Assembly: GCA_019652555.1 (NCBI GenBank)
Contig: BPAJ01000003.1
Location: 14,611-78,610 of the forward strand
From: Gammaproteobacteria bacterium
GTDB taxonomy: Bacteria > Pseudomonadota > Gammaproteobacteria > Magnimaribacterales > AG-339-G14
Direction of reading: 5' to 3'
DNA length: 64,000 nt
Below are positions 1 through 53,766 of the stretch, in pieces. A program made the translations under genes and the position numbers. The notes under the pieces were generated by a model, which did no database searches, was not told the origin of the DNA, and was given only the letters and a program-made list of their open reading frames with translations. The number at the start of each line of letters is the position of its first letter. The first letter of the stretch is position 1.

Positions 1-270
1 AGGACGGAAAAGTCGACTATCTATTTTACTTAACTTCCAACTAGAAAGGGTTTTGTCAAAGGTTTTTAAAATATCTTGAGAGCGCATGTAAACCAAATAA
101 TCTAAAGGGGCATAACAATGAACAGATTTATTTTCTTTGTTCTCTTTTATGGTTAGTCTCTCTTGAGCTGTTTCATAAAATACGCCTCCGCCATCAAAGA
201 ATTCTCCATCTCCATGTTCAAAAAATAAGTCTAAGAGATAGTCACCTCTCTCCCCAATTTTCTTGTTCAT
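1..270 (-). CDS. hypothetical protein, N-terminal 90 codons only (continues past left edge)
   Basis: The reverse complement of 1-270 is open for all 90 codons from the ATG at 270-268: MNKKIGERGDYLLDLFFEHGDGEFFDGGGVFYETAQERLTIKENKENKSVHCYAPLDYLVYMRSQDILKTFDKTLSSWKLSKIDSRLFRP. It is missing from the ORF track only because it has no stop in the window. Its ATG shares one base with the TGA of the upstream ORF (TGATG). No family motif recognised. Confidence 0.55.
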   Translation of the reverse strand, partial: MNKKIGERGDYLLDLFFEHGDGEFFDGGGVFYETAQERLTIKENKENKSVHCYAPLDYLVYMRSQDILKTFDKTLSSWKLSKIDSRLFRP

Positions 271-906
271 CAACATCTAGCTCTGAAAATTTTCTGGGTA
301 AAAAGTGCAGAGGCATAGAACATATCTTTGTCCGTCTGTTTATCGAAATATTTTGTAAGCAGATCTTTAAAATTATCTTTTGTACAAAAAATGGGATTTA
401 TATTTTCTTTTCTAAACTTTTCTTCCAAATCTTTTTTAGACTCATCAACAGCGGCCGTGATGGTGTATTCGGGAAATAACTTGCTTATACCTGCATAACC
501 ACCTACAGATGAAAATGTTTCAGTACTGTAAACATACTTACAGAAATTAAAATATGTATTGCAAGCATCTCTATCAAGTCCAAAGAACACTACGCATTCG
601 GATTGCTCAAAATTTTGAGGTACTGTATTGATATCAAATTTATTATGAGGTTGTTCTCCGTTGTGCAAAACAAATTGAAAGTCATTGTTCGTAATAAATT
701 CATAAATGGTTTGCTTGTTTTCCTGTAATTCAACCTGATCTTGAAGGTGTATAAATATTTTTTATATCCAATACCTCCTTGAGAGTTAATGAGTTTTTCT
801 AAATATTGATAGTAAGCTTGGATGATATGAAAGTGAGAAAAAGTAGATCTACAAAAACACAAAAGTTTAAATTATCTGCTTTCAATTTAAGTTTATTTGT
901 AGACAT
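270..906 (-). pseudogene. hypothetical ~212-aa protein whose reading frame is spread over three frames (true frameshifts or uncorrected homopolymer indels)
   Basis: The ATG at 906 gives MSTNKLKLKADNLNFCVFVDLLF..., which stops after 35 codons. Track ORF 590..862 (STFSHFHIIQAYYQYLEKLINSQGGIGYKK...) and track ORF 270..668 continue it in the next two frames. The switches coincide with T4/T5 runs (838-864 on the + strand) and with the A6 run at 758-763. The 270..668 frame is closed by TAA at 762-764, exactly at that run. No known family motif. Confidence 0.5.
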
Positions 907-957
907 TAGACTTAAAAATGGATTTAATTTAATTTTTAAATTTATATCAACTTTAGT

Positions 958-1119
958 TCACTTCAAGAAATAGAACAAGGCAACAAATAAAACACCAACC
1001 ACTATAAATGCAGGGAACAAGTATTTGAGTGTCCTGATATTCAATTCATCATCGTTTTTAAATAGGTTTATCAATAGCGCGACAACCAAAACGGCTCCCA
1101 CAAAGTAAATTAAAATCAT
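958..1119 (-). CDS. 53-aa two-TM micro-protein (below ORF-track size cutoff)
   Basis: The ATG at 1119-1117 directly abuts the TAG (1122-1120) of the upstream ORF; TGA at 960-958. Product: MILIYFVGAVLVVALLINLFKNDDELNIRTLKYLFPAFIVVGVLFVALFYFLK, two hydrophobic helices joined by a short charged loop. Confidence 0.55.
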   Translation of the reverse strand: MILIYFVGAVLVVALLINLFKNDDELNIRTLKYLFPAFIVVGVLFVALFYFLK

Positions 1120-2551
1120 CTAGCTTGTGGCGCCTGCAGAGTTTAATACAGCTAATCTGTCTGTGATTGCAGATAGCTTTCTTTTTATTTCATTCACTAG
1201 AGTTTCGTCATCACTCACAACTTTCTTATGAGTTTCTAATTCATCTCTGATTTCATCTAATTCTGTCCCAATTTGAGTAGATTCTTTCATGTAATCTACA
1301 AATTTATTTAGATCAAAAGATAAACTGTTCTCTTTGACCTTTTTATTCAGCTTGTCGATACAATCTCTTAAGCTTGCTTCCAAAGATGATGAAAATAACT
1401 TGTGAATCTTATTATCAGGAGATTTTTTTCTTTTTAATACGAGAATTCTAACTATGGCCGGTGTCATAAACATGATGCCAACTCCCACAATGGAATCAAA
1501 GGCCGTTTCGGGCTCAAAGAAAACCAACACGACGGCTAAAATTCCAAAAATAACATTCCACCCGATCCAAAAATCTATTTTTTTTTGAATTTCAGGAGAT
1601 ATGGCTGGCCCTAATGATTCTTCCTTGTGGCAAAATTTTTCAAAGAAAATAAATTTGTCTCGTCATTGAATGACACATCCGCATGTTTTTCATTGTAAAG
1701 ATCAATAATAGATTTTTGTCTTGATATTTTTTTATCAGCCCACCGCTAAATCTCTGTTTAACAGATAAATCATGTGCTTCCTTAGTTACTTTGAGTTTTT
1801 CCTCAGCTGCGCGAAGTTCATCAAGTAATCTTCGCATTTCAGCTTTGTCTTCCCATCTGGTACCTAATTTTTTCTTTCCTTGTCTATTTTCTCAGCAAGT
1901 TCTTCTACCTTTACTTTAAAAGAAAGTTTTTCAGCTTGAGTCATAGTCCCTTTAATATTTTTACTCGTCTTTGTATTGGTATTTAAATAATTTTTATTGA
2001 GCTTATTAAAAGCTTCATTTTTCATTAAATTAGTTGCAAAGTTTTCTGCACTATCTTTTTTGATCAAATCAAATTCATTTCTCATTCCTTGAAAAATATC
2101 TACACCTCCTTCAAGTACTTTTATATATTCAGCTTGTTTTGCATCAAATTTATTTTGCCAATCTTTGACTATTTTTGTTTGATCAGGAAGTTTCGTTGTC
2201 TCAAGGTATTCAAGATCTCTATTAAGTTTTGCTTCTTCATTGAGTAAATCTTTTGCTTCTCTTTCTTGGTTTTCTTTGGCAATAGTTCCTTCAGATTTCT
2301 TACCTGAACAGTCTTCACACATCCAAACTGTTCTATATGTTGTGTGTGTTCTTTTTTTTGACGTTAGTAAGGATCTTTCTAAAGCTTTTTGAGAAGTTTG
2401 AAATCCTAAAATGGCACCTACAACCTCTTTGCCACCAACGGTATTTCGAGAAGTTGCTGTAATTTTTTTTGGGTGTCGTACCATGAAATTTGCCGGTGCT
2501 TGGCTTCCACAAATATTACAAGTCGTTAGTCTGTTTTTTTTTTTTCGCCAT
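1120..2551 (-). pseudogene. hypothetical ~477-aa protein with two CxxC pairs, coiled coil and two TM helices, split into 4-5 frame segments at homopolymer runs
   Basis: Segments: ATG 2551 plus the A12 run; track ORF 1864..2484 (206 aa, K/E-rich, contains CEDC); track ORF 1640..1837; an untracked frame reading RWADKKISRQKSIIDLYNEKHADVSFNDETNLFSLKNFATRKNH; and track ORF 1120..1530, whose frame is open back to 1662. The last segment carries two hydrophobic helices, IDFWIGWNVIFGILAVVLVFF and SIVGVGIMFMTPAIVRILVL. Each neighbouring frame opens only a few codons before an A-run. The net length after correction is divisible by 3 (1434 nt). Confidence 0.5.
2534..2545 (-). repeat. A12 homopolymer (T12 on + strand) starting 6 nt after a candidate start codon
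   Basis: Direct count: t2534-t2545, flanked by ctg and cgccat. On the coding strand this reads ATG GCG A12 CAG. Confidence 0.95.
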
Positions 2552-2610
2552 AGATTAATTATAGTAATTTTTGAAATTTAAAAATATATTCAAGTAAAAT
2601 AATTTGAAAA

Positions 2611-2799
2611 ATGAATGATGACCTTCTAGCTATTCTTATTGCAATCCCTTTGTGTATAGTTGCACTTGCTTGGTACTACAGTACCGATAGAGGAAAAAAG
2701 GACATTAAAGACTTAGAAAAAGCTCAACAAGATTTGAAAGCTGCACTAAAATTTGAGTCAGATTTAGAAAGCAATAAACCAAAAAAGAAAACAAATTAA
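2611..2799 (+). CDS. 62-aa N-terminally anchored small membrane protein, unknown function
   Basis: Track ORF with one hydrophobic helix (LLAILIAIPLCIVALAWYY) followed by a charged helical tail. It is divergent from the 2551 start across a 59-bp, almost pure A/T spacer. Confidence 0.45.
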   Translation: MNDDLLAILIAIPLCIVALAWYYSTDRGKKDIKDLEKAQQDLKAALKFESDLESNKPKKKTN

Positions 2800-2846
2800 T
2801 TTACTTTTTAAGTAATTCATATTTTGTACCAAAAATAACTTTTGTT

Positions 2847-3332
2847 TTAGCCTCTCAAATTTAATTGGCGCAGAGATAAGAGAAATATTCCAGCACAACA
2901 AATCAGTACCCAGCCTGGAATGGATATACCTAAGAGACTCCACATCACTTCAGCACAATTGCCATCTCCAATGAAAAATTGAATCAATGCATCTGAAATG
3001 AAGTTGTTCTCCAAAAGATAATTTAAATCAGGTCCGCAAGAGGGGACTCGATCTGGCGGTAATGATTGCAGATACAAATGCCTCACCGCGGAAGCACCTC
3101 CCACCAGACTAAAAAAGCCCGTTAGCGCTAAGTAAAACTTTCCTAAATTGTTGTGCAGTATGCCAATCAATGCTGCAGCTCCAGCTAGAGCAACAGCTAT
3201 TCTTTGCACGATACACATGGGACAGGGTTCGAGCCCAAGTTGGTATTCCATGTAAAATGCAGTGGCAATTAAACCGATGCAAGCAAGCAAAATTAAAGTT
3301 AAAACAACACGCGTTTCTTGCAGCAAATTCAT
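2847..3332 (-). CDS. dsbB: disulfide bond formation protein B
   Basis: 161 aa with four hydrophobic helices. It has the first-loop CPMC pair and a second Cys pair (SCGPD...GNCAE), as in DsbB. Confidence 0.85.
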   Translation of the reverse strand: MNLLQETRVVLTLILLACIGLIATAFYMEYQLGLEPCPMCIVQRIAVALAGAAALIGILHNNLGKFYLALTGFFSLVGGASAVRHLYLQSLPPDRVPSCGPDLNYLLENNFISDALIQFFIGDGNCAEVMWSLLGISIPGWVLICCAGIFLLSLRQLNLRG

Positions 3333-3367
3333 GGTATAAGTATAACGAAATTTAGGTAAAAAATTTT

Positions 3368-6073
3368 ATGGCAAAACCAGAAAGCGCATCAGATACCGAC
3401 TCCGTCATTCTCATCGATGGGTCATCATATGTATACCGTGCATACCATGCTTTACCGCCCTTAACGACTTCCTCTGGTCAGCCAACTGGTGCGGTAAGAG
3501 GGGTGACCACCATGGTGATGCGTATCTTAGAAGACCATCCAAATTCACCCATTGGGATGATCTTCGATGCCAAAGGCGATACTTTTCGCCACGAAATGTA
3601 TGAAGAATACAAAGCCAATCGACCACCGATGCCAGATGACTTACGTCCGCAAATTCAACCCATTTATGACATTGTTGAAGCCTTGGGTATCAAGATTTTT
3701 GTAGTCGATAACGTTGAGGCCGATGATGTGATTGGCACGCTTGCTAAGCAAGCTGAAGAAAAGGGCATTTCGACTGTGATTTCCACTGGCGATAAAGATT
3801 TGGCACAACTCGTAACTAAAAATATCAAATTGGTGAATACCATGACCAATGAAGTTCTGGATCAAAAAGGGGTGGAGAAAAAGTTTGGCGTAACCCCAGA
3901 ACAAATCATCGATTACTTGGCACTTGTTGGGGACACCTCGGATAACATTCCAGGGGTAAATAAAGTCGGTCCCAAAACTGCCGTTAATTGGTTAAGCAAA
4001 TATGGAACGGTTGAAACCATCATTGAAAAAGCTGAAGAAATTACCGGTAAGGTTGGCGAATACTTACGCGAAGGCATTGAGCAACTCAAACTCTCGCAAC
4101 AATTAACCACCATTAAAAAAGATGTCGCATTGGATTTTGGGATTGAGGATCTGGCAGTAGGAGAAACCGATCAAGCCAAGTTGCACAAGCTATTTACCGA
4201 ACTGGAATTTAAGACTTTATTAAAAAGTGCTGAAACAAAAAAAACTCCAGCAAAAAGCTCCAATGGCTCAGCTTCAAAAGACAATTACCGCGCCATTCTG
4301 AGTAAAAAAGATTTGGATGGTCTCATTAAGGAATTGAAAAAAGCCAAAGTTTTGGCTTTTGACACCGAAACGGATTCCTTGGATTTTACTCAAGCCAACT
4401 TGGTCGGTTTATCAGTTGCAACGGACGAAGACAATGCATACTACATTCCGGTAGGTCACGATTACGAAGGTGCGCCTAAGCAACTCGATCGAGACGAGGT
4501 TTTAAAAAAACTCAAACCAATTATTGAAAAGACTCCTTTGATCGGCCAACACTTAAAATTCGATCGCAATGTTTTAGCAAATTACGACATCCATTTGAAT
4601 GCTATTGAAAACGACACCATGTTGATGTCTTACGTCTATGATCCAACTGCGACCCGTCATAATTTGGATGCCATGGCGAGTCATTATTTAAATGTCAAAA
4701 CCACAACTTTTGAGGATGTTGCTGGTAAGGGCGTCAAACAACTTACTTTCAATCAGATACCTTTGGAAAAAGCGAGTGACTATGCAGCAGAAGATGCAGA
4801 TATCACTTTTCGTTGCTATTCCCATTTAAAACCAGCTTTAGCAAAGACACCTTCTTTGGAAAAAGTTCTGCATGAAATTGAATTACCCTTGGTGCCAGTG
4901 CTCTCCGATATGGAACAAGCAGGAACTTTAGTTAATGAAGAAGCATTAAAAATTCAATCCAATAATTTAGGACAACGTATCAGTGGGCTTGAAGAACAAG
5001 CTTATCGAGAAGCGGGTAAAGAATTCAACTTGGCTTCTACCAAAGATTTAAGAGCAATTTTCTTTGATGAGATGGAACTCCCGGTCGTGAAAAAAACTCC
5101 TGGCGGCCAACCTTCTACCGATGAGTCGGTTTTACAAGAATTAGCCAATCATTATGAATTACCAAAAATTCTCTTGGAACATCGTACTTTGGCAAAATTG
5201 AAAAGTACTTATACCGATAGTCTGCCGCAACAAATATCGAAAAAGACGGGTCGCGTGCATACTTCTTTTCATCAAGCTGTGACTTCAACTGGGAGATTGT
5301 CTTCTGCTGATCCCAATTTACAAAACATCCCAATCAAAACCGATGAGGGTAGGCTTATCAGAACGGCTTTTGTTGCGCCCAAGGGATATCAATTGCTAGC
5401 AGTTGATTATTCGCAAATTGAGTTGCGCATCATGGCGCATCTTTCTGAAGATAAAGGCTTGATTACCGCATTCGAAAATGGCGAAGACATTCATTCTGTT
5501 ACAGCGGCAGAAGTCTTTGCTGAACCCGGTGAAGAGGTCACTGCAGAACAACGTCGTGGCGCTAAGGCGATCAACTTCGGTTTAATTTATGGCATGTCGG
5601 CCTTTGGTCTGAGTAAAGCTTTGAATATTTCTAGACCTTTAGCTGCTGACTATATTGATTCATATTTTCACAAATACCCTGGCGTTAAATTGTATATGGA
5701 ACGCACCAAGGAGCTTGCTAAAGAGAAAGGTTATGTTGAAACCTTTTTTGGTAGAAGACTTTATTTACCTGGAATCCACAGCGGACGCAGTCGCATGGCT
5801 GCAGAAAGAGCAGCAATCAATGCGCCCATGCAAGGAACTGCTGCTGACATCATGAAAATTGCGATGATTGAAATTCATGAGTGGCTAGCCAAAGGCAAAG
5901 TTGATGCTCGGATGATCATGCAAGTTCACGATGAAGTAATTTTAGAGGTCAAAGATCAAGACGCTTCCAAAGTCGAGCAAGAAGTTTCAAAAATCATGCA
6001 AAATGCAGCGAAATTGAAAGTGCCTTTGGAAGTTGAAAGCGGTCTGGCTTCCAATTGGGGCGAAGCCCACTAG
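3368..6073 (+). CDS. polA: DNA polymerase I
   Basis: 901 aa. N-terminal 5'-3' exonuclease region, 3'-5' exo motif FDTETDSL, and polymerase motifs DYSQIELR, RRGAKAINFGLIYG and QVHDE. Confidence 0.98.
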   Translation: MAKPESASDTDSVILIDGSSYVYRAYHALPPLTTSSGQPTGAVRGVTTMVMRILEDHPNSPIGMIFDAKGDTFRHEMYEEYKANRPPMPDDLRPQIQPIYDIVEALGIKIFVVDNVEADDVIGTLAKQAEEKGISTVISTGDKDLAQLVTKNIKLVNTMTNEVLDQKGVEKKFGVTPEQIIDYLALVGDTSDNIPGVNKVGPKTAVNWLSKYGTVETIIEKAEEITGKVGEYLREGIEQLKLSQQLTTIKKDVALDFGIEDLAVGETDQAKLHKLFTELEFKTLLKSAETKKTPAKSSNGSASKDNYRAILSKKDLDGLIKELKKAKVLAFDTETDSLDFTQANLVGLSVATDEDNAYYIPVGHDYEGAPKQLDRDEVLKKLKPIIEKTPLIGQHLKFDRNVLANYDIHLNAIENDTMLMSYVYDPTATRHNLDAMASHYLNVKTTTFEDVAGKGVKQLTFNQIPLEKASDYAAEDADITFRCYSHLKPALAKTPSLEKVLHEIELPLVPVLSDMEQAGTLVNEEALKIQSNNLGQRISGLEEQAYREAGKEFNLASTKDLRAIFFDEMELPVVKKTPGGQPSTDESVLQELANHYELPKILLEHRTLAKLKSTYTDSLPQQISKKTGRVHTSFHQAVTSTGRLSSADPNLQNIPIKTDEGRLIRTAFVAPKGYQLLAVDYSQIELRIMAHLSEDKGLITAFENGEDIHSVTAAEVFAEPGEEVTAEQRRGAKAINFGLIYGMSAFGLSKALNISRPLAADYIDSYFHKYPGVKLYMERTKELAKEKGYVETFFGRRLYLPGIHSGRSRMAAERAAINAPMQGTAADIMKIAMIEIHEWLAKGKVDARMIMQVHDEVILEVKDQDASKVEQEVSKIMQNAAKLKVPLEVESGLASNWGEAH

Positions 6074-6148
6074 TTCAAGAACTTTTTCAAACATCCTCAG
6101 TCTAAAAAACGTTCTCCTAAAAAATAAGGAAATACATAATCCTTGTGG

Positions 6149-6190
6149 CCCGTCAGCATCTCTCTCCCCTGAAAACTGCTGACGGGTTTA
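6149..6190. terminator. hairpin between convergent polA and engB
   Basis: Perfect 10-bp inverted repeat cccgtcagca (6149-6158) / tgctgacggg (6177-6186) with an 18-nt loop, followed by ttt on the + strand. It lies immediately after the engB stop. Confidence 0.5.
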
Positions 6191-6796
6191 AACTTCTAAG
6201 AGCAGTTTAATTTTATTTAACAAAGTTTCCAAACCTATTTTTTTGGTTGCAGAAAATACCAGTGAGTCGACAATAGCTGGGTAATCAGCCATTTTTTCCG
6301 AGACAACTTTAAGAGTATTTTGGGTTTCTTTGCTATTAAGTTTATCGGCTTTGGTCAAAACCAAATGAATGGGTAAATTCAACGAATTGCAAAGACTTAA
6401 AAATTCCAGATCTTTGTTTTGAAAAGGGTGACGCATGTCCATGATCAAAATCAAATCGGTTAGGGCTGCTCTTTTTTCCAAATAACTCAAAATCAGTTTG
6501 GCCCAAGCATTTTGATCTTGCTTACTGGCTTTGGCGTAACCGAAGCCTGGTAAATCGACTATTTTTTTTGCTTCGTCATTTGTTAAATGAAAAAAATTGA
6601 TGGATTGGGTTCTTCCTGGTGTATTGGAGGTTTTGGCTAATTTTTTTTGATTAGCTAAAGCATTGATCAAAGTAGATTTTCCAGAATTTGATCTGCCGCA
6701 AAGAGCAATTTCATTACCCGAGTCAGAAGGGAAAAGTTTGCTTTCGGTTGCAGCACAAGCAAAGGTCAGAGGCAAAGGTTTTGACTTATAACTCAT
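6188..6796 (-). CDS. engB: ribosome biogenesis GTPase EngB/YihA
   Basis: 202 aa. P-loop GRSNSGKST, DLPGFGY and TKADK motifs. The polA-adjacent position matches Pseudomonas-type synteny. Confidence 0.93.
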   Translation of the reverse strand: MSYKSKPLPLTFACAATESKLFPSDSGNEIALCGRSNSGKSTLINALANQKKLAKTSNTPGRTQSINFFHLTNDEAKKIVDLPGFGYAKASKQDQNAWAKLILSYLEKRAALTDLILIMDMRHPFQNKDLEFLSLCNSLNLPIHLVLTKADKLNSKETQNTLKVVSEKMADYPAIVDSLVFSATKKIGLETLLNKIKLLLEV

Positions 6797-6869
6797 TCTT
6801 CTAAAATCAGGAAAAACAATATTCTATAGTATATAATTGCCAACCATTTAGCCCACTAATAAAGAATAA

Positions 6870-7511
6870 ATGATAAAAAAATTATTACTTCTATCGTTTT
6901 TGGTAAGTTCCTTTAGCGTTTTTGCAGCTGCTGCTGGAGAAATGTCTGAAGCCAAACCAATGAAAAGAGGGGATGCTGAAAAAGGTTCTAAACTTGTTGG
7001 AACTTGCGTTGCTTGTCATGGCGTTGATGGAAATAGTGTTGTGGGCCAGTGGCCAACTTTAGCTGGCCAAAGAGAAAGCTATCTTTTTGAGCAACTTGAG
7101 CACATCAGAGATGAAGAGCGAGTTATCGCGGTTATGAAAGGCCTTTTGAATAATTATTCCGACGATGATTTAAGAGACATGGCAGCTTTTTACGCAAGCC
7201 AAAAAACCAAAGTCGGCCAAGCTGATGAGACAAATTTAGAATTAGGCCAACAGATTTATCGAGCTGGAAACTTGGCTTCGGGCGTTCCGGCTTGCACCGG
7301 TTGTCATGGACCTGCGGGTAAAGGTTTAGAGTCAGCGCAATATCCAATGCTTGGTGGTCAAAAGGCAGAGTACGTAGTCACGAGTTTGATTGCTTATCAA
7401 ACTGGAGAGAGAGCTATCGACGAACATGGCAAAATCATGCAAGGAATAGCTTCAAGACTTACCATCGAAGAGATTAGGGCGGTCGCCAATTATGTTTCAG
7501 GCCTTTACTAA
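6870..7511 (+). CDS. dihaem cytochrome c4
   Basis: 213 aa with a signal peptide and two CxxCH haem motifs (CVACH, CTGCH), one in each half. Confidence 0.9.
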   Translation: MIKKLLLLSFLVSSFSVFAAAAGEMSEAKPMKRGDAEKGSKLVGTCVACHGVDGNSVVGQWPTLAGQRESYLFEQLEHIRDEERVIAVMKGLLNNYSDDDLRDMAAFYASQKTKVGQADETNLELGQQIYRAGNLASGVPACTGCHGPAGKGLESAQYPMLGGQKAEYVVTSLIAYQTGERAIDEHGKIMQGIASRLTIEEIRAVANYVSGLY

Positions 7512-8115
7512 AAAACTTTTACTAGTTTTCATTTTCTCAGTCAGTTCACTATTGATTGCCGAAGATTATCAGCCAGGCAAACACTACCAGATTTTATCTG
7601 AACCCATCGCTACCAGAGATTCAAAAAAAATCGAAGTCATCGAGTTCTTCTGGTTTGGGTGTGGACATTGTTACAGCTTAGAAAATCAACTCAATAGCTG
7701 GGAGAAGAAACTTCCTGCAGATATAGATTTTTGGCGCTCACCAATCACTTGGAATGAAATGGCTAAAACGCATGCCAAATTATTTTATGCTGCAGAATTT
7801 TTCAAAAAGCCGGATATCATTGCAAGTACTTTTGTTTCCATTCATGCCAACCAGCGTATGATGACTTCCGATCGAGAGTTACAACCTTTTTTTGCAAGCT
7901 TTGGGATTGCCGAAGATCAGTACCAATCTTTGTTTAATTCTTTTGCTATGCAAAACAAAATCCGTAGAGCTGATACTTTTGGACTCAAATATGAAATCCG
8001 AGGAGTACCTGCTTTTATCGTCAATGGAAAATACAAAGTATCAGCCTCACGACAAGTTGGGACTTCCGAACTTTTGGATGTGGTCGATTACCTCATTAAC
8101 TTAGAAAGGAAATAA
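7492..8115 (+). CDS. dsbA: thiol:disulfide interchange protein DsbA
   Basis: 207 aa with a signal peptide and the active site FGCGHC. It follows cytochrome c4, as in pseudomonads, with a 20-nt overlap. Confidence 0.92.
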   Translation: MFQAFTKKLLLVFIFSVSSLLIAEDYQPGKHYQILSEPIATRDSKKIEVIEFFWFGCGHCYSLENQLNSWEKKLPADIDFWRSPITWNEMAKTHAKLFYAAEFFKKPDIIASTFVSIHANQRMMTSDRELQPFFASFGIAEDQYQSLFNSFAMQNKIRRADTFGLKYEIRGVPAFIVNGKYKVSASRQVGTSELLDVVDYLINLERK

Positions 8116-8116
8116 C

Positions 8117-8944
8117 ATGAGATACAAATCAAACCTGTTCATTCCAGGTCACACGCTCGATCGTTTGGATCGAGGTCTCAATAGCAATGCCAGTGCTCTC
8201 ATCATCGACCTTGAAGATGGTTGCCCAGAAGATAAAAAAATCGATGCACGCGAAGAATTGATTGGTCTTTTAAAAAAAGGGAACGTATTTACCAAACCTT
8301 TATTTGTAAGAGTCAACGATGCCATGAATGAAAACGGCAGACAGGATATTGATGCTTTATCGGATTTTGAAGATCAAATCGAGGCTATCATTCTTCCCAA
8401 AACACAAAGTTTTGATTTCTTAGCAACGCTTGCACCAATGATTGCATTCGAAAACAAATTAGTTCCTTTGATTGAGACGCCTAGAGCAGTCGATACCGTT
8501 ACACAAATAGCAGCATTTAAAGGAGTCATCGGTTTGTTCTTTGGAGCTGCTGATTTTTCTGCAGGTATGGGTTCTAAATTAGCATGGGAACCGCTTTTGT
8601 ATGCTCGGCATAAAGTAGCTTTGGCTGCAGCTATGTACAACCTCTTTACCATCGATGCGCCATTTTTCTATATCGATAATGAAGAAGGTCTTATAGAAGA
8701 GGCTGAAAAAGTGAAGAACCTTGGTTTTACAGGAAAAGCCGCGATTCATCCTTCGCAAATCGATTTTATCAATGATGCGTTTGAACCTACTAAAGAAGAA
8801 AAAGAGGAAGCCAAAAAAGTCCTTGAGGAATACCAAAAGATGGATGGCGGAGCTGTTAAAATTGATGGCAAAATGGTTGACGAGCCGATTGCAGAAGCGA
8901 TGCGTTTAAAATTATCTTTAGGAGATAAAGAACAGGAGGACTAG
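8117..8944 (+). CDS. CitE/HpcH-family acyl-CoA lyase (citramalyl-/malyl-CoA lyase-like)
   Basis: 275 aa with LFIPG...IIDLEDG...IETPRAV...GAADFSAGMG, typical of citrate lyase beta-like / CLYBL / Rv2498c-type lyases. Confidence 0.8.
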   Translation: MRYKSNLFIPGHTLDRLDRGLNSNASALIIDLEDGCPEDKKIDAREELIGLLKKGNVFTKPLFVRVNDAMNENGRQDIDALSDFEDQIEAIILPKTQSFDFLATLAPMIAFENKLVPLIETPRAVDTVTQIAAFKGVIGLFFGAADFSAGMGSKLAWEPLLYARHKVALAAAMYNLFTIDAPFFYIDNEEGLIEEAEKVKNLGFTGKAAIHPSQIDFINDAFEPTKEEKEEAKKVLEEYQKMDGGAVKIDGKMVDEPIAEAMRLKLSLGDKEQED

Positions 8945-8945
8945 C

Positions 8946-9464
8946 ATGTCAAAGTCCAGCAAAGATTTAGGTAACAATAGATTTAGAGAATCCTTCGGTC
9001 GTTACTTTGAAGAATTTGAAGTAGGCCACATATACGAACACCGTCCTGGTAGAACCATTACCGAGTCGGACAACACCTGGTTTACGCTTTTAACCATGAA
9101 TACTCATCCGCTTCATTTTGATAAGGAGTATGGCAAGGCAACAGAATTCGGGAAAAATTTAGTAAACAGTACTTTCACCGTATCTGTGATGGTTGGTATG
9201 AGCGTGAGTGATATCAGTCAAAAAGCCATAGCCAATCTTGGTTGGACCGACATTGTGCTTCCACATCCATTATTTGTCGGTGACACTCTATATGCAGAGT
9301 CGGAAGTTTTAGAAACGCGTCTTTCCGAATCCAGGAAAAATGCTGGCATCGTTACTGTAAAAACAATTGGTAAGAATCAAAATGGGGATGTTGTAGCTTC
9401 CTTCAAACGCTCAGCTTTAGTTCCGACCAAAGGTAATGCGGTAGACGATAAGATCGATTATTAA
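8946..9464 (+). CDS. MaoC-like (R)-specific enoyl-CoA hydratase, single hot-dog
   Basis: 172 aa with FEVGHIYEHRPGRTITESDNTWFTLLTMNTHPLHFD, the hallmark MaoC dehydratase segment. There is a 1-nt gap to the upstream lyase gene. Confidence 0.8.
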   Translation: MSKSSKDLGNNRFRESFGRYFEEFEVGHIYEHRPGRTITESDNTWFTLLTMNTHPLHFDKEYGKATEFGKNLVNSTFTVSVMVGMSVSDISQKAIANLGWTDIVLPHPLFVGDTLYAESEVLETRLSESRKNAGIVTVKTIGKNQNGDVVASFKRSALVPTKGNAVDDKIDY

Positions 9465-9465
9465 G

Positions 9466-10629
9466 TTGAAGCAATCTTTAAAAGGCATAAAAGTTCTTGA
9501 TTTAACCCACATGTTGGCAGGTCCTTACACGACTATGATTCTGGCTGATTTGGGTGCCGAAGTTGTAAAAATCGAGCAACCAAAAACAGGCGACATTACC
9601 AGAAATCTGCTGAAAGACGATCCAAAGTATTCTTTGGATGGGATCGGTGCATATCATCTAACTTTAGGTAGAAACAAAAAAAGCGTTGAATTGGATCTCA
9701 AATCTGAAGAAGGCCTAAAACTTTTCAAAGAGTTGGTCTCAGTTGCAGATGTTGTTGTAGATAATTTCAGTCAAGGCGTAACGCAGCGTTTGGGCATTGA
9801 TCATCAAAGCTTAAAAAAAGTTAATCCAAAAATCATTACCTGTTCAATCAGTGGCTTTGGCGATACTGAATTAAATCGACCTGCCTATGACAATCTCATT
9901 CAAGGTTACGCTGGAGCAATGTCCATCACAGGAACAGACAAAGAAAATCCTGTTAAATCCGGCATCCCTATAGCTGACTTAGGAGCTGGACTTTATGCGG
10001 TGATCGGTATTTTAAGCGCTATACAGTCTCGAGAAAAAAATGACTCCGGCGAACATGTGGATATTTCCATGCTGGATACTCAGGTGAGTTTATTAACTTA
10101 CATGGCTACCATGCATTTTCTCTCAGGCGAAAATCCTGAGCCGATTGGAAATCAACACATGAATCATGTGCCGTTCAATTCTTATAGAACTTCGGATGGT
10201 TTTATTCAAATAGGAGTGGTTGCTGAAGATTTTTGGCCCAGCCTCATTGAAGCGCTTGATCTAAGACAATTGGATACTGAAGAAAATAAAGTAAGAATCG
10301 GTAGACTAAAAAACAGAGAAAATATTGATGAGGCTTTGCAAGAAGTTTTTATTACCAACACCACAGAACATTGGTTGAAAATTTTACAAGAACACCGTGT
10401 TCCTTGTGGACCAATTAATACTCTTTCTGAAACTTTTGAAGACGCTGACCTATTAAAAAGAAATATGATCGTCGAGGTTCTTCAAGATAGTGGAACGTCT
10501 GTAAAAATGCCTGGTAACCCAGTGAAAATTTCTAATCACGATGAAGAATTTAGACGCTCACCAAAACTTGGTGAACATACTGCTGAAATTTTCAAAAATT
10601 GGTTAAATAAAGACATTTCAGTTGACTAA
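9466..10629 (+). CDS. family III (CaiB/BaiF) CoA-transferase
   Basis: 387 aa with a TTG start 1 nt after the MaoC stop. N-terminal signature GIKVLDLTHMLAGPYTTMILADLGAEVVKIE. Confidence 0.88.
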   Translation: MKQSLKGIKVLDLTHMLAGPYTTMILADLGAEVVKIEQPKTGDITRNLLKDDPKYSLDGIGAYHLTLGRNKKSVELDLKSEEGLKLFKELVSVADVVVDNFSQGVTQRLGIDHQSLKKVNPKIITCSISGFGDTELNRPAYDNLIQGYAGAMSITGTDKENPVKSGIPIADLGAGLYAVIGILSAIQSREKNDSGEHVDISMLDTQVSLLTYMATMHFLSGENPEPIGNQHMNHVPFNSYRTSDGFIQIGVVAEDFWPSLIEALDLRQLDTEENKVRIGRLKNRENIDEALQEVFITNTTEHWLKILQEHRVPCGPINTLSETFEDADLLKRNMIVEVLQDSGTSVKMPGNPVKISNHDEEFRRSPKLGEHTAEIFKNWLNKDISVD

Positions 10630-51121: not shown

Positions 51122-52465
51122 ATGAAAATATATGTTTTAGGTATTTGCGGAACTTTTATGGGCGGACTTGCGCAGTTGGCAGCTGAAAAAGGCATTAAAG
51201 TTTCTGGCTGTGACGAGAATGTATATCCTCCTATGGACCAAGTCTTACTTTCAAATGGCATTACGATTGATGAAGGATACAATCCAAAAAATTTACCCAA
51301 AGATGTTGATTTGGTTGTTGTGGGAAATGTTATAGCGCGTGGTAACCCCATGATCGAAGAAATACTTAATAAAGGTATAGACTTCATTTCTGGCCCAGAG
51401 TTTTTATCAAAATACTTATTAGCCAAGAGACATGTGGTAGCTATAAGCGGAACTCATGGCAAAACCTCTGTATCCTCAATGGTGACAAAAGTACTTCTAG
51501 ATAATGGAGTAGATTGTGGTTACTTAATTGCTGGAAGAGCGAAGGATTTAGATGCAACTGCTTCATTAGGAACTCATGAGTTTTTTGTCATAGAGGCTGA
51601 CGAGTATGACACTGCTTTTTTTGATAAAAGATCGAAATTTATTCACTATCATCCTAAAACTCTTCTAATCAATAATCTTGAGTTTGATCATGCTGATATT
51701 TTTAGTAGCTTGAGTGATATTAAAAAGCAATTTCATCACCTATTGAGATTGATGTCTTCCAAATCAACGTTAATTTTTCCTGAGCATAACATCAATATTA
51801 AAAATGTTATGAAAATGGGTTTTTACAGTCAAAGCCTTCCTTTCAATACTAAATTTGCCAGAGGCTGGCATGCCAAGAAAGTTAAGGCAGATTCCTCTAA
51901 ATTTGATATTTTTAAAGACAAAAAGAAAAAAGCGTCTATAAGTTGGTCGTCTATTGGCGAGCATAGTCTACAAAATGGATTAGCCAGTTATCTTGTTTGT
52001 AAATCCTTAGGCTTGAAATCAAGGGATATTGCAGAGTCACTCTCCAAGTTTAAAGGAGTAACAAGAAGAATGGATCTGGTTGGGGATAAAAGCAGCGTCA
52101 AAGTTTACGACGACTTCGCACACCATCCGACTGCAATTAAATACACTCTTGAGGGCTTAAGAAAAAAAGTTGGAAGTGAGAAGATAATTTGCCTTTTGGA
52201 AATGCGGTCCAATACGATGCTTTCAGGATATCATGACAAAAAAATTCCAAAGGCCGTAGCTTCAGCCGATCAAGTCTTTATTTTTTCAAAAGACAAGAAG
52301 CAAATCTCTGCTCTAGAGAGCGGAAGTAAAAATATCGAAGCATGTTCCACTACGCAAGAATTTTTAAGAAAGCTTTCTAGCTTGGATTTAGACAATACTC
52401 ACTTAATTTGTTTATCTAATGGCTCATTTGATGGTATCCATCAAGCCATTTTAGAAAGAATTTAA
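51122..52465 (+). CDS. mpl: UDP-N-acetylmuramate:L-Ala-gamma-D-Glu-meso-DAP ligase
   Basis: MKIYVLGICGTFMGGLA matches the Mpl N-terminus, and GTHGKTS is present. The start is set at 51122 rather than the GTG at 51098. Confidence 0.9.
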   Translation: MKIYVLGICGTFMGGLAQLAAEKGIKVSGCDENVYPPMDQVLLSNGITIDEGYNPKNLPKDVDLVVVGNVIARGNPMIEEILNKGIDFISGPEFLSKYLLAKRHVVAISGTHGKTSVSSMVTKVLLDNGVDCGYLIAGRAKDLDATASLGTHEFFVIEADEYDTAFFDKRSKFIHYHPKTLLINNLEFDHADIFSSLSDIKKQFHHLLRLMSSKSTLIFPEHNINIKNVMKMGFYSQSLPFNTKFARGWHAKKVKADSSKFDIFKDKKKKASISWSSIGEHSLQNGLASYLVCKSLGLKSRDIAESLSKFKGVTRRMDLVGDKSSVKVYDDFAHHPTAIKYTLEGLRKKVGSEKIICLLEMRSNTMLSGYHDKKIPKAVASADQVFIFSKDKKQISALESGSKNIEACSTTQEFLRKLSSLDLDNTHLICLSNGSFDGIHQAILERI

Positions 52466-53766
52466 TCTAAATTTATCCAACTTCCGTGAAATCCAAAAGG
52501 TACTCTTTGAGGCAAGGTTACTCTGGCTAGGGGCGCATCTGAAAAATTCTGAGCATCCAAAACAACAAAATCACTTAAGTCAGTTGTTTTATCATAGACA
52601 AATCCAACAACAAAACCATCATCTTCTGATTTAGCATTTTTCCTAGGAATAAAAACCGGCTCAGCAGCTTGGCAACTTTCGCCAAAATCATGAGCGATGG
52701 TTTCACTTTTTTCAAAATCATGTTTGAAATAGTTGTTAAGTCTTCCATCATTGAGCAAGTATCCAAAACGATGTTGTTTGCCATCAAAATCCGGATGAAC
52801 TCTGGAAAATTCCATAGGCCTATCATCTAACATTTCTTCGGAACATGTTTTAGTTTTTGGATCTAGAATCCATCTTGTAAGAAAAGGTTTTTGTCCCATG
52901 GGAAGAGGATTATCAAAATCAAACAGTCTTTCGTATCGACAAAAGTCTAAGACAACTTGGCCGTTGTCATCTTCATACGAATTAACTATGTGAAATAAAA
53001 ACCCTGGATTAACCTCTATCCAGATAATTTCATCAGTTTTCTTGTTTTGTAATCCTACTCTGGAAGTATGTTTATCATTCCAGACCACTGGATAATCTCC
53101 ACCAATAGGATTATTGTCATCGTCTCTCCTACCAAGATTAAACGTAACAGGCAGATCAAAAATAAGAACATAATTTTTGGTAATAGCACAATCATGAACC
53201 ATTGGTCTGCTTGGTGTTTCAATGATTTGATCTTTGATGAGTTTGCCGTTGCTATCTATAGTTACATAATGAACTTGGCCTAATCCATTTACGTATTCCC
53301 CAAAATCGTAACTCACGGCATGCATTTCCCCAGTATCTGAATCAATTTTTGGATGGGCAGTAAATCTTTTATTATCTGCTGCTGGAAAAGGCTCTTCTTC
53401 AAGAAAATTCATCTCAGAGTCCATAATTACTGGAGATACTCCTCCCTCGACTAAGGCATAAATTTTTTCGCCGTGTTTAAGCACATGAGTATTGGGACCA
53501 AAACCAAAAGGTGAGGTCACAAATTTATTCTTATACCAAAGAGCCTTCCCATCTTCTACTCTTATGCCATGAATCATTCCGTCGCCAAAAAAAGGATGAT
53601 AATTTTCATGATTTATTGGTTCTTTTGGATTAGGTCCGTTTCTGAGAAATAGACCTGATAGTTCTCTAGGTAATTCTCCTGAAATCTTTAATTCAGTTGT
53701 AGATGTTTCTTCTACCGGATACCAGTTTCCAGATAAAAATTTATTTTTACTTTCTCTTTTAGTCAT
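52462..53766 (-). CDS. carotenoid cleavage oxygenase family (RPE65/CCO) dioxygenase
   Basis: 434 aa. Conserved His contexts YHPFFGDGMIHG, FTAHPK, MVHDCAITKNY, LFHIVNSYE and FGFHGSWI fit the 4-His iron site of CCOs. Substrate unknown. Confidence 0.82.
   Translation of the reverse strand: MTKRESKNKFLSGNWYPVEETSTTELKISGELPRELSGLFLRNGPNPKEPINHENYHPFFGDGMIHGIRVEDGKALWYKNKFVTSPFGFGPNTHVLKHGEKIYALVEGGVSPVIMDSEMNFLEEEPFPAADNKRFTAHPKIDSDTGEMHAVSYDFGEYVNGLGQVHYVTIDSNGKLIKDQIIETPSRPMVHDCAITKNYVLIFDLPVTFNLGRRDDDNNPIGGDYPVVWNDKHTSRVGLQNKKTDEIIWIEVNPGFLFHIVNSYEDDNGQVVLDFCRYERLFDFDNPLPMGQKPFLTRWILDPKTKTCSEEMLDDRPMEFSRVHPDFDGKQHRFGYLLNDGRLNNYFKHDFEKSETIAHDFGESCQAAEPVFIPRKNAKSEDDGFVVGFVYDKTTDLSDFVVLDAQNFSDAPLARVTLPQRVPFGFHGSWINLD

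Follow-up and report, generated by a model that had tools for sequence, protein, structure and literature searches.

An A12 tract behind the start codon of a SAR86 membrane protein gene is most likely a consensus error of the deposited assembly

Does a run of twelve adenines directly behind a start codon switch a gene on and off, mark a gene in decay, or record an error of assembly? The question is raised by the first part of a 64,000-nt stretch of DNA (the window) from the MAG CM1_5m.P123 (CM15mP123), a member of SAR86. On the minus strand the deposited sequence reads TATAAT-TAATCT-ATG GCG AAA AAA AAA AAA CAG ACT AAC GAC TTG TAA, and the frame of this ATG ends after 11 codons. A 206-aa ORF (P0002, 2484-1864, minus strand; annotated CM15mP123_13220) begins 67 nt 3' of the ATG and is shifted by one base; its frame is open back to a stop codon at 2580-2578, with no ATG, GTG or TTG before 2484. 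With the tract at A11 or A14 the ATG reads through CNIC into MVRHPKK; removal of one A, or addition of two, gives MAKKK(K)NRLTTCNICGSQAPANFMVRHPKK... All of this was described in a first-pass annotation and is confirmed in the deposited sequence. That annotation proposed an ON/OFF switch, with a one-base assembly error as the alternative, and pointed to slippage on long A runs as a process that can rescue frameshifted genes; it overlooked that the 3' end of the 206-aa ORF is likewise truncated. We conclude that the tract is very probably a consensus error, because it belongs to a cluster of indels with regional limits, relatives are intact, a near-identical strain has A9-TAC at the same place (scaffold L024), and the assembly method is of a kind that leaves such errors. 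The coordinates are collected in Table 1.

Table 1. Features of the first part of the window; all coordinates are window positions.
Feature	Position	Strand	Comparison or basis
Gene 1	1120-2551	minus	477-aa clean ORF after four single-base corrections
Start codon ATG (GTG in 3 relatives)	2551-2549	minus	homologue N-termini
A12 tract	2545-2534	minus	relatives A9-TAC/TAT/TTC; in the window T->A at 2535 and an additional A
TATAAT hexamer	2558-2563	minus	ends 6 nt 5' of start codon
A8 run	2352-2359	minus	AAGAAAAA (Arg65) in L024 and other relatives; window G->A at 2357
A6, 1-nt deletion	1868-1873	minus	5-7 relatives one base longer; A7 in close relatives L001, L002
A5 for A6, 1-nt deletion	1713-1717	minus	A6 in 5-7 relatives
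Lost T, outside homopolymer	1628-1629	minus	CCTACAAGG in relatives, CCACAAGG in window; 5-7 references
Intergenic T5	2607-2611	minus reading	T6 in L024, L013
Intergenic T5	2831-2835	minus reading	T6 in L024, L013; outermost indel seen of low-quality stretch
Gene 2	1-906	minus	orthologue of 696-aa orphan in SAG L021 (11648-13738); runs off window start
Gene 2, C lost, outside homopolymer	847/848	minus	three references
Gene 2, A6 for A7	758-763	minus	two references
Gene 2, T5 for T6	300-304	minus	pairwise alignment
Gene 2, T4 for T5	286-289	minus	pairwise alignment
Gene 2, 2-nt loss	245-255	minus	pairwise alignment
Gene 2, CC for CCC	6-7	minus	pairwise alignment

The A12 tract is the longest homopolymer of the window, the runners-up being 9 nt long. 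Dinucleotide-preserving shuffles contained a mean of 1.5 12-A runs, with at least one in 62 of 100, so that a run of this length is unsurprising by composition in a window of 36.5% GC.

The tract was compared with those of relatives, as the first-pass annotation had proposed, using sixteen metagenome loci, three SAR86 single-cell genomes and L001. Among 19 relatives 16 have A9, one has A10 and two have A6; every run keeps the frame, and in 19 of 19 the run is ended by T (of a Tyr or Phe codon) or G. The comparison thus yielded no out-of-frame and no uninterrupted allele in these 19. Wherever contig and assembly span the whole gene, including in the three single-cell genomes, there is a single ORF of 474-508 aa, and the frameshifts of the window are carried by no independent assembly examined.

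Some public sequences of this gene are themselves defective. The protein P0005, which also starts MVRHPKK, was considered as independent evidence for the frameshift and rejected as uninformative: it comes from L020, a contig that turns chimeric upstream of GAAGCCAAGC and does not extend to the tract. Chimeric or adapter-tailed ends occur on several short public scaffolds with gene 1 (L020 1-50; L024 970-1130) and affect the tails of P0005, P0003 and P0012—the end of P0012 looks adapter-derived (...LLYTSPSPRD...)—and such tails lead to spurious termini in the protein database. Comparison of L001, a contig of 3x coverage, with the window (2455-2985 against 769-1292) shows that after GGGCCAGCAATACCTCCT the 3' part of its gene gives way to the reverse complement of the downstream region; an inversion is possible, a chimeric low-coverage assembly is more likely, and P0001 ends at 320 aa because of this rearrangement.

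An independent view of the same strain is given by L024, an ENA short-read scaffold from another sample that encodes P0003. Its alignment with window 2911-1943 covers 971 columns with six differences and no ordinary substitution. Five of the six occur in the context of A/T runs: the two intergenic T5 runs are T6 in L024, the tract has its extra A, and at 2535 (T->A) and 2357 (G->A) an A run has swallowed an interrupting base. The sixth is one base abutting L024's own chimeric junction. The gene starts ATGGCG-A9-TAC in L024, which, coming from another sample, shows A9-TAC in a near-identical strain, not in the population of the source sample. Judged by this alignment, the window departs from L024 only in ways that homopolymer miscalling would yield.

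The tract is one of several breaks in the same gene. Searches of homologues against the window with tblastn crossed the frameshifts in one frame and so masked them, and a k-mer frame-aware mapping was used, which follows gene 1 through frames 0->1->0->2->1. DNA alignments with up to eight relatives identify exactly four window-private indels, namely a +1 at the tract and the three deletions of Table 1. Repair of the tract alone (A11 or A14) gives 228 aa as opposed to the full 477 aa, because the second break, the deletion at 1868-1873, makes the TAG stop (1866-1864) that ends the 206-aa ORF, and two more deletions lie beyond it. Homologues extend well past this stop: P0001 has 320 aa, and P0010 reaches the 136-aa ORF at 1530-1120. 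The corrected ORF stops where the ORFs of the relatives stop. Gene 1 also holds a second A9 run (1578-1586, minus strand, codons IQKKID), which is as long as in L002, so not all long runs in the low-quality stretch are miscalled.

Two small hydrophobic ORFs lie beside gene 1, at 958-1119 (minus, 53 aa) and at 2611-2799 (plus, 62 aa); the DNA of both is conserved in close relatives (L001, L002 and L005; L013 and L024), and the 53-aa ORF begins directly after the stop codon of gene 1 (TAG ATG).

Gene 2 is damaged in the same manner. The 696-aa gene of L021 maps to window 859-7 in three frames, and pairwise alignments found at least six small deletions. Pfam, PADLOC, PDB sequence and Foldseek searches with gene 2 gave no significant match; in its single-cell version the orphan has a C-terminal block with several hydrophobic helices. 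Together with gene 1 and the intergenic runs this makes about 12 indels in window 1-2836 (11 of them deletions, nine in mononucleotide runs, two intergenic), a density of about 0.4%.

Outside this region the window looks clean. L021, whose gene 1 homologue is 90% identical, has flanks of 10 kb, and its ORFs match window 2850-10410 at full length and in single frames, save for an 18-residue start-codon difference in one. DsbB, PolA and six others are intact there, with 91-98% amino-acid identity. The two sequences are 91% identical over this interval, with 3 net indels per ~680 substitutions, one of the indels being an in-frame 3-nt change and two being intergenic; 21 of the 29 runs of at least 6 nt have the same length in both, and most of the other eight differ by substitution. 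No frame-breaking indel was found in 2850-10410 and none is apparent in the remaining window, where long ORFs tile and 18 of 20 small same-strand ORFs match Pfam end-to-end or nearly so. A Fisher test that set the ten indels then counted in the initial 2545 bp against 0 frameshifts across 7561 bp gave p = 1e-6. One of the genes that appear intact encodes a 434-aa protein of the RPE65/carotenoid-oxygenase family (52462-53766, minus; Pfam 7.5e-105), which may have a part in supplying retinal to the proteorhodopsin of SAR86.

Between gene 1 and L001 there are 29 synonymous and 10 non-synonymous codon changes, and 29 of 40 base changes fall at third positions. Gene 1 has six substitutions that occur in the window alone, namely five synonymous third-position changes and the T->A in the tract. 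Neither gene 1 nor gene 2 contains a stop codon born of a substitution. Relative to L021, the final ~400 nt of gene 2 hold about 3 substitutions but 4 indels. Gene 2 as a whole shows 4 synonymous and 16 non-synonymous codon changes against L021; we considered this excess as a mark of decay and rejected it, as most of the changes are also in L005 and point to lineage divergence of a fast-evolving gene. The indels apart, neither gene shows decay.

The origin of the assembly fits such errors. Residual errors of CCS reads are mostly homopolymer indels, and a wtdbg2 consensus is usually polished before use. In the locus tag of P0002 the prefix CM15mP stands for sample CM1_5m of PMC8919816, and by this convention the ORF belongs to genome CM1_5m.P123. 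The MAG was assembled with wtdbg2 from PacBio Sequel CCS reads of at least 5 passes and over 99% accuracy; HyPo polishing is described for ONT contigs only, and subread depth went down to 31x for some MAGs (PMC8919816). One or a few Q20-Q25 reads would be expected to leave indels at a density of about 0.4%. The boundary of quality lies between 2836 and DsbB (2847-3332) and coincides with a strain-variable spot, where L008, L011, L012 and L015 carry an insert of ~2 kb between DsbB and gene 1 (L008 356-2434; window equivalent ~2590-2850). The L008 insert codes for a P-loop NTPase of the KAP family, 692 aa long and similar to the defence proteins PifA and QatA (Pfam 3e-37; PADLOC PifA 2.5e-33). 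Reads of co-occurring strains would diverge at such a spot and leave few reads for the haplotype of the window, and the contig may also end there. From this we infer low read depth as the local cause, in a stretch that adjoins a strain-variable island and perhaps a contig end.

On this evidence the first ~2.8 kb of the window would be a low-quality stretch in which about 12 small indels, mostly 1-nt deletions in A/T runs, have persisted. The real sequence at the start is most likely ATG GCG AAA AAA AAA TAC AGA ..., or M-A-K-K-K-Y-R-L-T-T-C-N-I-C, which would open an intact SAR86 gene of ~477 aa in frame. Of the first-pass annotation's one-base assembly error, the assembly error therefore stands and the single base does not, since about 12 indels share the 2.8-kb stretch. 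Some points count against an artefact. The step from A9-TAC to A12-C takes an apparent substitution as well as an insertion and is less simple than a length error; a restriction of the errors to ~2.8 kb, with the other ~61 kb looking clean, calls for a local cause that is itself deduced; and the deletions at 1628/1629 (T) and 847/848 (C) are not in homopolymers.

The start at ATG 2551, with the CNIC knuckle included, as the first-pass annotation had it, is supported by the protein family. A protein search returned 17 homologues, and those that reach the N-terminus start M[A/P/T]KKK[Y/F]RLTTCNICG; taken over all homologues the start is M[A/S/P/T]KK[K/N][Y/F]RLT[T/S]CNICG. The first ~90 residues are almost invariant even where overall identity is only ~45%. 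An AF2 model brings the CxxC motifs at 11-14 and 78-81 together on the β-hairpins of a single Zn-ribbon-like core (local pLDDT about 80), which contains a low-confidence loop and is followed by long helices. The model is moderately confident overall (pLDDT 61, pTM 0.25), and a fold search with it hence carries little weight; gene 1 matched nothing significantly in Pfam, PADLOC or PDB, and Foldseek reached an E-value of 0.36 at best. In a profile search across 1.8 billion representatives the ~85-aa N-terminal domain recurred in 118 remote clusters, where its start is almost always at residue 3-6. The homologue N-termini, the Zn-ribbon model and the position of the domain in the clusters together make ATG 2551 the real start. 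What distant members have in common is this N-terminal domain together with hydrophobic segments; TerB occurs in some of them as well. Gene 1 encodes a SAR86 membrane protein that begins with the Zn-ribbon, has long helices and hydrophobic, probably transmembrane segments, and closes with a helical region.

The TATAAT hexamer upstream of this start lies at the identical distance in 15 of the 19 relatives (L001, L004-L006, L008-L016, L021 and L022), and at -16 in 3 distant ones. No Shine-Dalgarno-like sequence occurs between the hexamer and the start codon, and a consensus promoter scan left TATAAT 2558-2563 uncalled, as no -35 hexamer fits. The arrangement hints at a leaderless mRNA that would begin with the start codon itself and for which the hexamer may be the promoter; with the GTG start of 3 relatives a leaderless start fits less well. 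A conserved AAA AAA AAA (KKK) run follows directly 3' of the putative leaderless start.

Other readings have to be weighed against the consensus error. Genes 1 and 2 might truly be decaying in the SAR86 population, with A12 as one true slippage mutation. Such pseudogenisation agrees with ORFs that are disrupted relative to intact orthologues, with the fact that natural slippage favours homopolymers too, with a position beside a strain-variable island where gene loss is plausible, and with damage that is regional, not genome-wide. Genuine decay nevertheless seems unlikely to us, for about 12 indels stand beside essentially no ordinary substitutions relative to the same-strain scaffold, and the ordinary private substitutions are five of five synonymous with no stop among them, which is not the mark of relaxed selection. 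Further, the natural baseline of the adjoining DNA is 3 indels, none of them disruptive, for ~680 substitutions; intergenic runs carry indels too; the frameshifts recur in no independent assembly; and indel errors are a known residue of the assembly method.

The switch proposed by the first-pass annotation would require that this strain lost the interrupting T and that A11/A12 toggles the gene by slipped-strand mispairing. Hypermutability would be expected of a homopolymer of at least 11 nt that lies 6 nt inside a coding region, and since the T->A at 2535 is not a pure length error, a true A11 is conceivable; an uninterrupted homopolymer of at least about 8 nt in the 5' coding region stands in the deposited sequence as A12, though L024 with its A9-TAC makes it doubtful that this run is real. 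The tracts of 19 of 19 relatives, however, are interrupted and in frame, without the expected length variation, and the same-strain scaffold has A9-TAC. Even the ON state would still be truncated by the three further frameshifts and would not restore the full-length protein, and the similar loss of an interrupter at 2357 (AAGAAAAA becoming A8), also within the low-quality stretch, suggests that one kind of artefact lies behind both. We therefore drop the switch as highly improbable. Slippage of RNA polymerase or ribosome on the A run, rescuing a truly frameshifted gene, is barely credible. A runs of at least 9 nt do induce RNA polymerase slippage, poly(A) slippage rescue has been reported in AT-rich endosymbionts, and this genome, at 36.5% GC, is AT-rich; yet rescue at the tract could not mend the three deletions that follow in the gene, of which one is not in a run, and the frameshifted state is conserved in no relative. 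A mixed reading follows from the apparent substitution beside the insertion, which would allow a true uninterrupted A11 (Tyr6->Asn) to exist: the T would be truly lost, a run of A11-A12 beginning 6 nt into a probably leaderless gene would slip in vivo and make expression of the Zn-ribbon protein stochastic, and the other indels would be assembly errors. It is very unlikely; if true, heterogeneity of the tract would be biological in spite of the assembly errors around it.

If the tract is the consensus error that we favour, indels of this kind have split two genes into pieces that are annotated in GenBank as separate hypothetical proteins, CM15mP123_13220 among them, and gene 1, once corrected, defines an uncharacterised but conserved family of SAR86 proteins that carry a Zn-ribbon at the N-terminus. 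A caution also follows, as homopolymer frameshifts in unpolished long-read MAGs can mimic contingency loci exactly; inspection of neighbouring genes and of near-identical short-read contigs is a cheap discriminator.

Among known systems, slipped-strand contingency genes with poly-A or poly-G in the 5' coding region occur in Neisseria, Haemophilus and Campylobacter. The locus resembles them in its long homopolymer right after the start and in a deposited ORF that is out of frame; it differs in that no relative has an out-of-frame or uninterrupted tract and the ON state is not full length, and their hosts are host-adapted pathogens, whereas this is a streamlined free-living SAR86 bacterium. With poly(A) slippage in endosymbionts it shares an A-rich genome and an A run of at least 9 nt within a coding region, but there the frameshift is a conserved genomic state, while here every relative is in frame. 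The likeness to unpolished PacBio CCS/wtdbg2 assemblies goes further. The indels are 1-nt, mostly deletions, mostly in A/T runs, clustered and lacking in accompanying substitutions; biased to homopolymers, they cross genic and intergenic borders and affect non-coding as well as coding DNA. This MAG is documented to come from a platform and assembler prone to indels, with polishing described for ONT only (PMC8919816), and the independent assembly of a near-identical strain, L024, is free of the indels over the 971 aligned columns, with T6 at both intergenic runs. Unlike in such assemblies, the errors are confined to ~2.8 kb, two deletions are not in homopolymers, and the tract needs a substitution. 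The gene itself has its place among the membrane proteins with an N-terminal CxxC...CxxC Zn-ribbon, an uncharacterised group with no Pfam model of which gene 1 is a member, and in which the ~85-aa domain is nearly always at the extreme N-terminus and is followed by helices and hydrophobic segments.
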